The notes beneath the pieces were generated by a model, which had not been told where the DNA came from, searched no databases, and saw only the letters and a list, made by a program, of their open reading frames with translations. 64,000 bases of DNA from Phyllosticta citribraziliensis (lineage: Eukaryota). This document shows positions 8,069-13,545 of this stretch, piece after piece. The position numbers and the translations under genes are program-made. The DNA is taken from the NCBI RefSeq assembly GCF_038025025.1, contig NW_027117344.1, positions 2,046,001 to 2,110,000 on the forward strand, read 5' to 3'. Each line of letters starts with the position of its first letter. Positions within the stretch are counted from its first letter, which is position 1.

Positions 8069-10012
8069 ATGAGGAAAGTTGATTCGTACAGGCCGCTGTC
8101 GCCTTCGCGTTCCGGATCGGGCAGGGCGACGCCGTCGACCTACGACAGCGCCGACGACGACGCGTGGAGGCGGGGCGACTGCACCATCCGAGGAGCATCC
8201 ATGGCACGCACGCCGTCCCACGAGGAAGAGGACAGAGCCATCCCTCCGACGAAAAACGACAGAAAAGACAGCGGCGTACACTTCGACAACCACGACGTGC
8301 AGAAGAAGTGGAAGGCGCGACAGAATTTCAACTTCAAGAGCCTCATCAAAGTGCCGGCGCCAAAGGCTCCGAAGGAATGGCCCCCGAAGCAATGGCCAAA
8401 TGTGGAAAGGTGAGTCGATCGATGATGCTGTCTGTTTGGGCGGCTGGAGACGTTGATGCGTGCGTTGTCTAGCTGGCGGAAGGACTGCCCTCGTTGCGGT
8501 GGCATACGTCACACGGCCGTCGCGCAACAATGCAATCGGCTTTGTCGGCTTTGCGGTACTTTTCAGCACATTGGAGGTCGGTGTCCGCGAAACAGAGATG
8601 GGAATAACAGGAACGAAAAGAGTCCAGGGAATGGGACTCACAACGGAGACCTTGAAAAGAAAAGGGACCTGTTTCCTGAGAGGGTTACCAAAGCTGAGCC
8701 CGTGGAGAAGAGACAGGACCAGAAGGTGATCAACCATTCGTTCGTGGAGAAGAGACAAGACGAGAAGAAGGTTGCCAAACCTACTCTCGTGGAGAGGAAA
8801 CATGATGCGAAGAAAGTGGTCAATCCTACACTCGTGGAGAAGAGACATGATGAGAAGAAAGTGGTCAAACCTACTCTCGTCGAGAAGAGACTCAATGACG
8901 GGAACCACGGTAGAGACATGGAGCTCGACGAGCCTTGGAGAAACTTCTCGTTCAAGTTGGGGGCGACGGATCAAAAATTGATAACACCCACGCTCAGCAA
9001 CGCGGCCCAGAATGAAGGAATGCATCGAGACAGCGGGGACTATGGCGGTAGGTCAACGGCCAGCAGAACAGATTCTGTGTCTGAACGACGGAGCTCTACA
9101 AGATGGGATGTTCGTCCCAAAGACGACTGGGACCAGTCCAATCGACTAACTCCCATTGACTTTGGCAATGACGACCGACGCCAATCTGGTCGACTGACTC
9201 CTGTCGACTTTGGAAACAATGACCGGAGCCAGGCCAATCGACTGGGACCACCCTTCGAATATGGAGACAATGATCGCGGTCGGTTCAGCCAAACGCCTCA
9301 CATGGACCATCATCAGCACAGGGGTTGGGAGGAGCCTCCCCTAAGATCGCGCGCGGACCAAGACATCGACATGGCGTACCGACGAGACGACGGAAGCCTC
9401 CCAGATCTGCGCACCGAGAACGAGCAGCTGCGCTCCAACTGCGACAACTTCCGCACGCGCAGCGAAAAGCTCTTCTCGCAAAACCTGACGCTCCTCCGCG
9501 ACCGCGAGATGCTGCGGCGGCAGCTGGAATTGGTGGGCATGGAAAAGAGGCGACAAGCCACCACCGCAACCTCCACCACAAACCCCAACTGCTTCGACCC
9601 TTCGTTTTGGCTGCGCCAGATGCAGATGGCGGAGCTGGAACGGATGCGGGCTGCCAGTTTCGACGCGTCGGCGTCGCTGCGTCAGCAGCAGCTCGAGATG
9701 GCTGAGGCGGAGAAGAGGCGGTCGAACGATTCGGACGCTTCGCCGCAAATGCGAAAGGCGGATGTCGGAGACATGAAGGATAGAATGGCGAGGAACCCTG
9801 ATAATCCTTTTGCGCTGCGCCAACAGCAGCAGCATGACATGGCCGGGATGGAGCAACGACCGGCAAACGGTTTCGACATGGCCCTCCCCGTGATGATGCC
9901 CCCCATGTCTTTGCCCGGCATGCCGTTTGGCGCTGCTTTTGCTCCTCCCCAGTTTCATCCGCTCGAGATGGATCGCTCGTGGCTGGGTGGTGGCTTTCAT
10001 TATCCGATGTAA
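8069..10012 (+). CDS. Hypothetical protein with CCHC zinc knuckles, peptide tandem repeats and a coiled coil
   Basis: ATG 8069; intron 8410-8472 (GTGAGT..TAG) joins the 7724 and 8453 ORF frames in phase. Motifs CPRCGGIRHTAVAQQC and CRLCGTFQHIGGRC (C-x2-C-x4-H-x4-C). Confidence 0.75.
8701..8890 (+). repeat. About 4.3 copies of a 42-45-nt coding repeat (VEKRHDEKKVVKPTL-like)
   Basis: Units begin cgt(g/c)gaga at 8701, 8743, 8788, 8833 and 8878. Confidence 0.9.
9133..9276 (+). repeat. Three copies of a 48-nt coding repeat (QSNRLTPIDFGNDDRR-like)
   Basis: Units begin at 9133, 9181 and 9229. Confidence 0.85.
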
Positions 10013-10824
10013 ACGTTCCCTTGGCAGGATCCTCAAGTTGTGCAGTCTCTTGCTGGATTTCGTGTCTCTTTGCTGCGGAGTGGGCTTCTTGTAGGTGAGT
10101 TGGGAGTAGAGTTGTGTCAGGCCGGCTTTGGGCTGCACCTCCTGTGTTCTTCTGGGTTCTGGCACAGTACTTCAGTCCAAACTCATTTACCTGATGAACA
10201 AGTACCCTGTGCCATGTCATAACTGAATGAGCAGCAACAGGCTCCCATTTGTTTATTGTCCTGCAGCCCCACGCGCCTGTCGGTCAAGCATTTTCCAGGC
10301 TCTTCGCAACCGTAACTGACAACCTCACCTTCACACCCCGCGATACGACCTGCCATCGCTCCAAAGCCGCCGCTTCCCGTCTCACACACTAAAAGACAAA
10401 AACAAACATCACTCATAGACACCAAAGACAAAAAAGAATGCATATACTGCCCCAATAGGGCCGGTACAGCGATCAATTCGCCCAGGGCAAAGACTGCACT
10501 GGACAGCAACAGTACCGGGAAACAGGTGACAGACGGCACAACACCACCGAGGGGTGTGGGGCCTTTGCTATGCGACTGACAGTTGACAAGCGCGGCACGG
10601 CGCAAAAGCCAGGCTTGCCTTGAGGTAGTCGCGACACTACTGTTTGCTGAGTCACTCACTCGCTGTATCGAGCGAGCAGAAATTTTCCTCGTCGCTTCCT
10701 TGACGGGAAGGACGTGTCACGATAGCAGCAATCATGGATGCTGACAGCGCGACGCGGCGCGACACTGCGTAGCGATCGAAGCGCAAGAAAAGAATCCACA
10801 CCGACAAAGCGAGCTGTCAAAGAC

Positions 10825-10830
10825 AAAAAA
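10825..10830 (-). terminator. RNA polymerase III oligo-T terminator of the tRNA-Asp gene
   Basis: TTTTTT on the minus strand, 17 nt downstream of the discriminator base and preceded by TTTC. Confidence 0.8.
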
Positions 10831-10860
10831 GAAAGGATCATTGAATCTCTCCGACGGGGA

Positions 10861-10923
10861 CTGCGTGTGCTGTTAGTGAAACTGCGCCGGACAAACACCT
10901 TGAGTGGAGGGGCGGCTACTTAC
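10861..10923 (-). other. Spliceosomal (U2-type) intron, 63 nt, inside the tRNA T-loop between positions 59 and 60
   Basis: 5' GTAAGT (10923-10918), branch site CACTAAC (10878-10872), 3' CAG (10863-10861). Exact removal restores GGTTCGATTCCCC. Confidence 0.88.
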
Positions 10924-10944
10924 ATCGAACCCCGGTCTCCCGCG

Positions 10945-10961
10945 CTTGCAAGACACTGTCA
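10945..10961 (-). other. Canonical tRNA (TSEN-type) intron, 17 nt, after position 37
   Basis: TGACAGTGTCTTGCAAG lies one base 3' of the anticodon; its TGACA is complementary to the TGTCA of the anticodon loop. Confidence 0.88.
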
Positions 10962-11418
10962 TGACAAGCGGAAATCATCACCACTAGACCATCGAAGACC
11001 TGTTTGTTGATGGAGGAGGCCCCCGTTGGTGTGGGTTATGAAGCGAGAGAGGGTCTGTTGTTGTGCCGAGATGCGCCGGAGCGATGCGCCGCTAGGCCAG
11101 TCTGGGTGATGTGTGGACAAGGATGGCTGGACTATTTTGCCGATTGTGGCCGAGCAGGCACTGCCACTGACCGTCGCTTTTTAGGGGGAGGGGAGCGTGG
11201 AGTTCTTTTGAGGGCTGTCTCCCTTATCTATGCTGGTCGACGTCTTTCAAAGCTGGAGACTCCCAGTTCACCAGGACCATCATTCCAATTTTGTTGTCCC
11301 CGTGCGAAGAATATTATATTAACTCCAAGACTACCTATTACCATCTATGCATGCCACGCTTATGAACAACGAAGCTCTACGTCTAAGATTACACCCGTGT
11401 TGAACGAGTTCAGCCAGC

Positions 11419-13545
11419 TCACTCGCTCCGCTCCCCCGGCGGCGTAGGAGCCTCGAGCACCTCCTGGATCCTCTGGCTCGGAAGCCACTGCTCAGCAGGA
11501 ATGACCCACCACGAGACGAGGGCAAATATGGTAACAATAGCCATGATGACGGGCGCATAGTTGAGCGTCTCGGCCGTGACGGGGAACTCGTACGGCGAAA
11601 AGAGAACAGCAACGACCCAGCCGTTCCAAAAGACGGCGATGAACTGGAACGGCTTGCTCAGCCAGCCCAGGCTCCATGCCGGCTTGGGGAAGGTTTTGGG
11701 GGTGCACAGGAGGCGGCCGAGGCAGATGAGGCCGTATGCTGCGACGGTTGGCACGCCTGCGGCGGAGACGAGCGATGTGAAGGCCACGGCGGATGGGAGG
11801 ATGCTGCAGCTGATAAAGGATGCGACGCCCCAGACCACCAGCACTGCGTTTCTCGGTTGGCCGTCGACGACTCGGGCGACCCAGCTGGACCATGGGAGAA
11901 CGCCGTCACGAGCTACGGCAAAGACTAGGCGCGAAGACGCCAGAATGGCGATTGCAGTGTTCTTCTAGAGTCAGCGCACGTCATGAGGGAAAGCTCACCG
12001 ACTTACCAGCCAGAGTGCCACGACGCAAACAACGTTCATGAAAATGTGGCCGCCTTTTCCGAGGATAACTGCATACAGGGGGACAAACGGCTGCTCTCCT
12101 CCAAAAGAGAACAGCGTATCAGCGTCCGGCTGGACACCCTTCATCAGCTCAAGCAAATCAAAGCATACAGGGGCAAACGTACAACACAGAACAGGAAGAG
12201 AATCATGACAGCAAATCCACCAAGACCACTGACAATCGTGCTCCAAAAGATCCCACGGGCCGCCGCGACGGACGCATTCTTCGTCTCCTCAGCCACATGG
12301 CCAGACGCGTCGAAACCGATCAGGATGCCGGCGGTGGCGAGGTACGACAGACACCAGTTCCAGCCAGCAGGGGCGCCCGTGCCGTTGTAGGTCGTCATGA
12401 AAGCCTCGTGCGCGGTGCGGAAGCCGTAGGTGTTCTTCGTTCCGATGGGTAGCCAGATCATGTTCAGCGCAAAGTCGAGAAGCACGACCATCGATGACAA
12501 CCAGAAGATGTGCCGGAAGTATTTTGCTGGAAAAGATCAGAATCGTTTGATAGGCAAAGAAGGTGAGGTTTACGTGGCATCAGGTTTGCCAATGCAGCTA
12601 CGGCCAGCATTACTTCTGTGCATATCCACTGGACCGCCCTGAACTTCACAGAGCTGCTGTCACTGGGAAAGTCGACGCTGAAGACGACGATTTCCTGGGG
12701 CGGCGGTCAGACAAGCCGAAAAGTTGACCAGAGGAAAAGCTTACCGAAAGAAAATAGTTGACAGTCGCTTGGGTATTACCTGCAACAAGGTCAGCTTGGT
12801 ATCATCTTCAAACACGTCAAAAGAACTGACTGGCACAAAAGGTCGTCCAAGCCGTGGTACTCCACCACGCAACGATGAAACCAAACAGCCTGCCAAACCG
12901 AGGACCGCCAGCCTCTGCAGCCCAGAGGTAAATGGACCCGGCCAACGGCAGCGATGAGCATATCTCGGCGATAGCAGCGGCAGTGATGAACGAGAAGACG
13001 CAGGACACGATAAAGCTCGTCCTACATCGGGATGTCAGAATTGGACAGAACCAATGCCTTTGTGTAAAAGAGCATACCAGTATGCCAGATTACCACCGGC
13101 TGCAATTCCGGTGCTAAACGTCGTCCTGACACCGCCGACGAAATACAACGCCGCTGATGGCTCTGTCAGCGCGAATCGGGAGGGGAAAGAAGGCGAAAAC
13201 GAACCAAACGACGTCGCAAAGTTGTGGAAGATGCTGTACGTCCGATGAAGCACCTACAATTCACACCTCACACATCAACATCAACATCTCGAATCGACCT
13301 CCAATCACGGGATTTGACAATCGCAGCCCAGCAATGCAAAACAACAAGGGTAGAATTACAGGCTTGTACCCCAAATTTCTCTGCAAATTCAGACATCAGT
13401 CATTTCATTCGCCAGAGTAGGACGAATGGCTACGAACGAGAACGGCAGCGTCCTTGGTGTTGTCGAACGACTCTCCCTCCGACGAGTCGTAGTCGGGCAC
13501 CGCTTGGCTGCTGCTGGCCTGCGCCAAGGCGTCGGATCGAGCCAT
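11419..13545 (-). CDS. APC-superfamily amino-acid/GABA/choline/polyamine permease, multi-exon
   Basis: ATG 13545 (MARSDALAQ...). Exon pieces RNLGYKP / VLHRTYSIFHNFATSF / AEICSSLPLAGSIYLW / GFDASGHVAEETKNAS / NYAPV; about nine short GT-AG introns including 21- and 35-nt micro-exons. Confidence 0.9.

Follow-up and report, generated by a model that had tools for sequence, protein, structure and literature searches.

How can a transfer RNA (tRNA) gene be transcribed, and how can its RNA become a tRNA, when an intron splits its internal promoter in the DNA? The question is raised by a gene on the minus strand of a 64,000-nucleotide (nt) window of contig NW_027117344.1 from Phyllosticta citribraziliensis (the window is the whole stretch analysed, and all coordinates are window positions). 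The gene is read here as tRNA-Asp(GUC) and carries two insertions: a 17-nt intron at the canonical site in the anticodon loop, and a 63-nt intron of spliceosomal type in the T-loop, which divides the B box. [quoted passage not shown]

The gene and its two introns

ARAGORN, run with and without introns in the anticodon loop, finds no tRNA in the intact window, and Rfam gives no match at E values up to 1 on 9000-13000 nor at the gathering score across the window. Once positions 10861-10923 are removed, ARAGORN recognises a cloverleaf of 72 nt whose anticodon loop holds a 17-nt intron; after removal of both insertions the cloverleaf is complete, with the conserved bases of the D- and T-loops present. 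The register chosen by ARAGORN places the 17-nt intron between positions 33 and 34 and names the gene Leu(CAA). By hand the gene is assigned instead to tRNA-Asp(GUC), because its variable region has only 4 nt and because 37/38 is the canonical eukaryotic intron site. With the intron at 37/38 the loop reads GTC, and G73, G10-T25 and C38 are all present in the sequence. In yeast, G73, G10-U25 and C38 form the set of identity marks of tRNA-Asp.

The 63-nt insertion begins with GTAAGT (10923-10918), contains CACTAAC (10878-10872) and ends in CAG (10863-10861), with the branch A of CACTAAC 12 nt before the intron end. These signals are equal to or better than those of the three introns of the upstream amino-acid permease gene, which are spliced out in RNA contigs (11962-12006, 12130-12182 and 12527-12573; 45, 53 and 47 nt long) and use GTAAGT, GTACGT or GTAAAC, CTGAC or CTGAT, and AAG or CAG. 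The excision is also specific. Both strands of the window hold 223 candidate excisions of the form GT..CTRAY..AG, and just one restores a tRNA, namely this one. Compared with shuffled sequences, the insertion folds into no unusual structure (z +0.37). An introner would be expected to have many nearly identical copies across its genome; a second copy of the 63 nt is absent from the 64-kb window, where the best other match spans 11-15 nt at E 0.64 or worse.

Precursor, spliced RNA and relatives of the gene

The RNA data consist of assembled, unstranded contigs of two public runs, X1 and X2, both of which are taken as RNA since permease introns with CT..AC ends are skipped in their contigs. Splicing at the locus itself is recorded by one X2 contig (record 7, 1234 nt), which matches 9800-10860 with 0 differences. 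Beyond 10860 it continues with 15 letters that equal 10924-10938 (15/15) and are unlike 10861-10875. The junction 10860/10924 therefore means that a transcript with the 3' trailer of this very locus lost exactly 63 nt. The unspliced form is present in X1 as a 100-nt contig (record 1) covering 10852-10951, and it is read as precursor rather than DNA carry-over because X1 has no contigs on the flanking intergenic DNA. A preliminary description of the locus had allowed for a copy silenced by the insertion, with no precursor RNA; the unspliced and the exactly spliced contigs contradict this, and this tRNA copy is expressed. That the 63-nt insertion is a spliced, spliceosomal-type intron in a tRNA gene is thus well supported, and its signals point to the spliceosome as the probable excising agent.

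Other contigs end within or at the first exon. In X2 an adapter directly adjoins 10998 (or 10997, given a one-letter ambiguity), which places an RNA 5' end at tRNA position 1 or 2, and in X1 an adapter at 10989 marks a stop at tRNA position 10 that would fit a modified G9 or G10; these exon-1 contigs with adapter ends are not assignable to this copy as opposed to a paralogue. The coordinates of the gene and its surroundings are collected in Table 1.

Table 1. Elements of the tRNA-Asp(GUC) gene, as assigned here, and of its surroundings in the 64,000-nt window.
Feature	Positions	Strand	Remarks
Whole tRNA-Asp(GUC) gene	10847..10998	-	72-nt tRNA and two introns; position 1 = 10998, discriminator G73 = 10847
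tRNA positions 1-37	10962..10998	-	Acceptor 5' strand, D arm, anticodon stem 5' strand, anticodon GTC
A box TGGTCTAGTGG	10981..10991	-	From sequence
Canonical tRNA intron, 17 nt	10945..10961	-	Between positions 37 and 38; size from ARAGORN, register set by hand
tRNA positions 38-59	10924..10944	-	Anticodon stem 3' strand, 4-nt variable region, T-stem 5' strand, T-loop to T59
Split B box GGTTCGATGTA	10921..10931	-	tRNA positions 52-59 and first three intron bases
Spliceosomal-type intron, 63 nt	10861..10923	-	Between T-loop positions 59 and 60
tRNA positions 60-73	10847..10860	-	T60, T-stem 3' strand, acceptor 3' strand, G73
3' trailer, 16 nt	10831..10846	-	Contains TTCAAT at 10845-10840, candidate auxiliary B-box core
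T6 run, Pol III-type terminator	10825..10830	-	From sequence
5' leader region CATCAACAAACAGG	10999..11012	-	Probable start-site region; from sequence
Last exon of upstream amino-acid permease gene	11419..11961	-	Pfam AA_permease_2, E 6e-15

The intron is also present outside the P. citribraziliensis window. A further run, X4, is taken as DNA of a related organism because its contigs span a permease intron unspliced, and its DNA contigs carry the T-loop intron as well. Within the intron, the listed differences between X4 and the window are changes at positions 10901 and 10911 and a gap of 1 nt at 10906, and each of these falls between the splice signals. Among the changes listed, none falls in the exons, and the contig on the flank 10571-10814 has 17 changes and 11 gap letters. 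Three X4 contigs whose upstream flanks differ converge at 10998, a hint that the gene has several copies, and X2 holds a second exon-1 contig that shows 4 differences. The gene belongs to a tRNA-Asp family of multiple copies.

Genes of the same layout were sought in metagenome contigs by scanning for a T arm interrupted by GT..AG at 59/60, which gave 10 loci. Seven lie in GC-rich coding DNA, yield no tRNA when the segment is excised and are regarded as matches by chance. The other three (L003, L007 and L010) are tRNA-Glu genes with anticodon TTC or CTC; each has a canonical anticodon-loop intron (20, 8 and 26 nt, respectively) and a 54-55-nt intron at 59/60, and ARAGORN finds no tRNA in any of them when they are intact. 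Their T-loop introns start with GTAAGC or GTAAGT, hold CTAAT, CTGAC or CTAAC 8-10 nt before the end, and end in CAG. The same pattern gave 5 matches and 0 tRNAs in prokaryote genome contigs, which served as a negative control. All four T-loop introns share GTAAG, a CTRAY box 8-12 nt before the end and CAG, and differ in the remainder; the bodies of the tRNA-Glu introns are unrelated to that of the window intron, with the splice signals kept. L007 and L010 are related to each other in that their flanks align and their intron bodies have diverged around retained signals. By eye, an APS-kinase-like open reading frame (ORF) can be read in L003; together with the grammar of the introns and the permease, it marks the setting as fungal. 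The window gene is accordingly placed in an intron-rich fungus, and the tRNA-Glu genes are attributed to other fungi.

These relatives bear on three other explanations of the locus. An assembly error, or a junction made as an artefact of reverse transcription, could be suspected from the fact that the locus-specific junction comes from a single contig. However, the insertion is found in X4 DNA contigs and in the X1 RNA contig, the two insertion borders share no direct repeat, so that a jump of the reverse transcriptase is not suggested, the 15 loose letters equal exon 1 exactly, and independent genes of the same layout exist. We regard this explanation as barely credible.

Removal of the 63 nt by the tRNA-splicing endonuclease and ligase, with the GT..AG ends as a coincidence, is a second possibility. 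It has the precedent that 59/60 is a known archaeal non-canonical site and that T-arm introns occur in nucleomorphs and red algae, as stated in the available part of PMC4090602. The structure that would define such an intron, a bulge-helix-bulge in which a helix of 4 base pairs (bp) at the splice sites lies between two 3-nt bulges, is absent: in either register, 0-2 of the 4 pairs of the central helix form in the window gene and in L003, L007 and L010. The lack of unusual folding in the window intron, and the GTAAG, CTRAY and CAG retained by all four introns amid otherwise different sequence, likewise speak against endonuclease cleavage, which we consider very unlikely.

A third explanation accepts transcription and splicing and sees the intron as a tolerated passenger in a redundant tRNA-Asp copy, which would contribute little or no tRNA and drift towards a pseudogene. 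The existence of other copies, indicated by the X4 flanks and the second X2 contig, is in line with this; a weakened B box should lower transcription, and the mature product is not assignable to this copy. Against it stand the exons without listed change in X4 beside a flank that has changed considerably, the retention of splice signals while the intron body changes, and the persistence of the layout in three tRNA-Glu genes with wholly different intron bodies and intact exons and signals. Precursor and spliced RNA are, moreover, both detectable. A mere passenger is therefore unlikely, and an expressed gene with a spliceosome-excised T-loop intron remains the preferred reading.

Promoter elements and the polymerase

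The preliminary description was right that the B box is split in the DNA, where it reads GGTTCGATGTA and the conserved C61 lies 63 nt further on, at 10859, and also that the A box TGGTCTAGTGG and the T6 run, which follows the 16-nt trailer, are intact. The A box sits where a type 2 Pol III promoter has it, at tRNA positions 8-19. The split B box has 2 mismatches to GGTTCRANNCC through the loss of C61 and C62, and a contiguous B box at positions 52-62 is absent. A perfect GGTTCRANNCC occurs nowhere in the 128 kb made up by both window strands. A B box within the intron, as in U6 of Schizosaccharomyces pombe, was tried as a candidate and rejected, the best matches having 2-3 mismatches.

The region downstream of the tRNA offers a candidate substitute. 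The A box is kept in all four genes of this layout, and a T5-T6 run lies 16-74 nt downstream of the tRNA in each (a T5 run after 38-74 nt in the three tRNA-Glu genes). The 3' trailers are unusually long (16 nt in the window gene, 74, 39 and 38 nt in the others), and every one contains TTCAAT, the core of the T-loop and B box; in L003 this core lies within a perfect B box, GGTTCAATCCC. By chance, three independent trailers this long would all hold TTCRA with a probability of about 4.5e-4, and 97 out of 200,000 random triples did so. Upstream of the tRNA, the leader CATCAACAAACAGG presumably resembles the yeast Pol III start-site motif. Transcription by Pol III with a weakened internal B element, a trailer B element, or both is favoured on these grounds, that is, because of the A box, the T5-T6 runs, the TTCRA cores of the trailers, GGTTCAATCCC in L003 and the precedent of U6. 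One earlier argument for Pol III does not help. The intron has no T run longer than 3, as had been reported, and this carries no weight because only 0.11 starts of T4 are expected by chance in 63 nt of this composition.

Two further sets of strings were seen near the tRNA-Glu genes. In L003 and L007, both on the plus strand, the intron end ATTCAG forms a B-box-like string with the next exon bases (3 mismatches in L003, 2 in L007), and the window gene and L010 are without such a string; it could be a relic of intron origin or a second weak B element. In L007 and L010, strings like TCAATC and CCAATG that resemble the trailer motif lie about 6-25 nt upstream of the tRNA and could represent a start-site motif or a flanking direct repeat from gene duplication.

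The main competing view of transcription is that the tRNA is cut from an RNA polymerase II (Pol II) transcript, which could be a read-through of the permease gene or have its own upstream start, and which would receive a cap, undergo co-transcriptional splicing and then pass through RNase P and RNase Z. The broken B box is in favour of this route, and access of the spliceosome is simplest on Pol II transcripts. The X2 contig with the spliced junction, furthermore, continues for about 1 kb beyond T6. Parallels can be found in tRNA-like RNAs released from long Pol II transcripts and in trypanosome tRNA-Sec, and Pol II-made tRNA or tRNA-like RNAs are described in the available parts of two papers (PMC2943599, PMC6152437). 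However, the Pol II route leaves several features without a role. All four genes keep the A box and the T5-T6 run, and every trailer has TTCAAT or a B-box motif before the T run, for which a Pol II unit has no evident use. Beyond T6 the X2 contig also coincides in part with the 3' end of a gene on the plus strand that is convergent with the tRNA (ORF to 10012), and since the contigs are unstranded it does not show a single transcript there. In addition, S. pombe U6 is a Pol III-type gene spliced by the spliceosome, according to the accessible part of PMC5855946. We judge the Pol II route to be rather unlikely.

The contigs themselves leave read-through from the permease gene neither favoured nor disfavoured. 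The permease stop codon TGA (11421-11419) lies on the same strand exactly 420 nt upstream of tRNA position 1 (10998), which makes precise the distance of about 420 nt given earlier. X1 and X2 have no contigs on 11022-11209, and the permease contigs stop at 11231 (X1, with adapter adjoining) and 11297 (X2). No contig links the permease mRNA to the tRNA, and contigs cannot exclude such a link. Likewise, X1 has no contigs on 9800-10833, and contigs cannot show the absence of downstream read-through. Of the two routes proposed in the preliminary description, Pol III with a truncated or external B box is thus the one favoured by the sequence, and Pol II read-through has no linking contig; the polymerase is deduced in either case.

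A number of points weigh against the reading preferred here. The locus-specific spliced junction comes from one contig of one run with an overhang of 15 letters. Removal of the 17-nt intron is not seen: the RNA contigs on 10924-10989 retain it, and none among the contigs listed is without it. No mature-tRNA read is assignable to this copy, because paralogues share the exon sequence, and the continuation of the X2 contig beyond T6 could mean read-through or Pol II transcription. Concerning the promoter, B-box matches as poor as GGTTCGATGTA or better number 320 in 128 kb (both window strands), and the trailer motifs of the window gene, L007 and L010 each have 3 mismatches to the B-box consensus and are singly not significant, only the shared core being so. 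Concerning the relatives, the kinship of L007 and L010 leaves the class with only three independent members, the shared site of insertion follows from the search pattern and says nothing on other sites, and the differences of X4 are seen only among those listed, which falls short of proof that X4 conserves the splice signals completely.

The neighbourhood of the gene shows some features of its own. The permease intron 12527-12573 (47 nt, GTAAAC..CTGAT..CAG) is removed in X1 and in X13, a run from a related organism, and retained in an X2 contig, in which the other two permease introns are removed; this looks like intron retention or pre-mRNA in that run. The terminator region of the tRNA, TTCTTTTTTGTCTTTG (10818-10833), recurs exactly 395 nt downstream on the minus strand (10423-10438, E 0.002), and an X13 RNA contig (record 5) on 10431-10601 stops within the second T run. 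This interval may represent a second small Pol III-type RNA of about 170 nt, for which Rfam gave no match and the fold z was -1.1. The long plus-strand ORF convergent with the tRNA gene (8426-10012) shows a CCHC motif like a zinc knuckle close to its start, together with repeats rich in K/V/E and about 15-17 residues long, and it has no Pfam match at E 0.01.

A proposed maturation pathway and its known parallels

If Pol III does transcribe the gene, maturation may proceed as follows. Pol III would start about 10 nt upstream of 10998 and stop at the T6 run, with TFIIIC placed by the A box and a weakened B element, which could be the truncated internal box or the TTCAAT of the trailer. The spliceosome would then remove the 63-nt GTAAGT..CACTAAC..CAG intron while the 3' trailer is attached; here the excision and the trailer are observed and the agent is deduced. 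The T stem and the acceptor stem would presumably hold the two exons together, and the T-loop and the L-shape could form only after the 63 nt are excised. The ends would next be trimmed, CCA added and the 17-nt intron taken out by the tRNA-splicing endonuclease and ligase, as in the general maturation of fungal tRNAs.

The closest known parallel is U6 of S. pombe, a Pol III-type gene that has its B block inside an intron which the spliceosome takes out (PMC5855946, in its available part). Like the gene described here, it encodes a small stable RNA and has an A block, a T run, a short GT..AG intron and a displaced B block. Unlike tRNA-Asp, however, U6 RNA is a component of the spliceosome, and reverse splicing at the catalytic centre is the presumed route by which it gained its intron. 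The present host is a tRNA, B-box matches in the intron are no better than 2-3 mismatches, the candidate B element is in the 3' trailer, and the same RNA also has an intron of the endonuclease type. The SNR6 gene for U6 of Saccharomyces cerevisiae has its A and B blocks about 200 bp apart, compared with 30-90 bp in tRNA genes, as far as the same source covers the matter (PMC5855946). Its B block, which TFIIIC uses, lies outside the mature RNA, which is comparable to the trailer motif about 144 bp from the A box here. In SNR6, though, the B block is beyond the terminator and there is no intron, whereas the present motif precedes the T run and, outside L003, matches only in part.

Other systems share parts of the layout. 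The bulge-helix-bulge introns of archaea, Cyanidioschyzon merolae and nucleomorphs also occur more than one to a gene, with one in the T arm, and are also missed by standard finders; they are defined by the bulge-helix-bulge and cut by the tRNA endonuclease, whereas the present intron has no such motif and full spliceosomal signals (PMC4090602, in the portion available). Introns in the U3 small nucleolar RNA and small nuclear RNA genes of fungi are likewise normal short introns in structured small-RNA genes found by computational analysis of signals, but those RNAs need no tRNA endonuclease, and the available part of the source mentions no tRNA case (PMC5832005). In the literature searched, no nuclear tRNA gene is described as having a natural spliceosomal intron. 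For an artificial case, Koehrer, Vogel and Domdey in 1990 reportedly showed that a Pol III-made yeast tRNA precursor with a pre-mRNA intron was spliced by the pre-mRNA machinery, which would make such a pathway feasible. That intron is said to have been placed in the anticodon loop of a construct, whereas the present one is natural, lies in the T-loop and splits the promoter. Reviews, in their available parts, keep spliceosomal and tRNA introns apart and place the former in Pol II transcripts (PMC12530127, PMC10275265, PMC4090602), to which fission-yeast U6 is the known exception.

Slightly better than even odds can be given to a wider claim, namely that these genes belong to an undescribed fungal class of tRNA-Asp and tRNA-Glu genes whose T-loop and B box are split by a true spliceosomal intron. 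Such genes would be transcribed by Pol III via the A box and a B-like element in the trailer, and their RNA would be spliced in the nucleus by the spliceosome and then by the endonuclease and ligase. Being missed by standard finders, they would leave fungal tRNA sets systematically incomplete. The annotation blind spot is plain in that four genes are invisible to ARAGORN and Rfam until the intron is removed.

If the preferred reading is true, spliceosomal splicing of a probable Pol III transcript would be known from a second case, independent of the first, and the gene would be a natural test bed for the handling by TFIIIC of a B box that is split or relocated. It would also become possible to test directly in which order tRNA folding, end processing and the two types of splicing take place. 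The finding also has a bearing on intron gain in small RNA genes, which may occur by reverse splicing or through insertion. For the organism, it would mean that one tRNA apparently depends on the spliceosome in addition to the usual tRNA-splicing enzymes.

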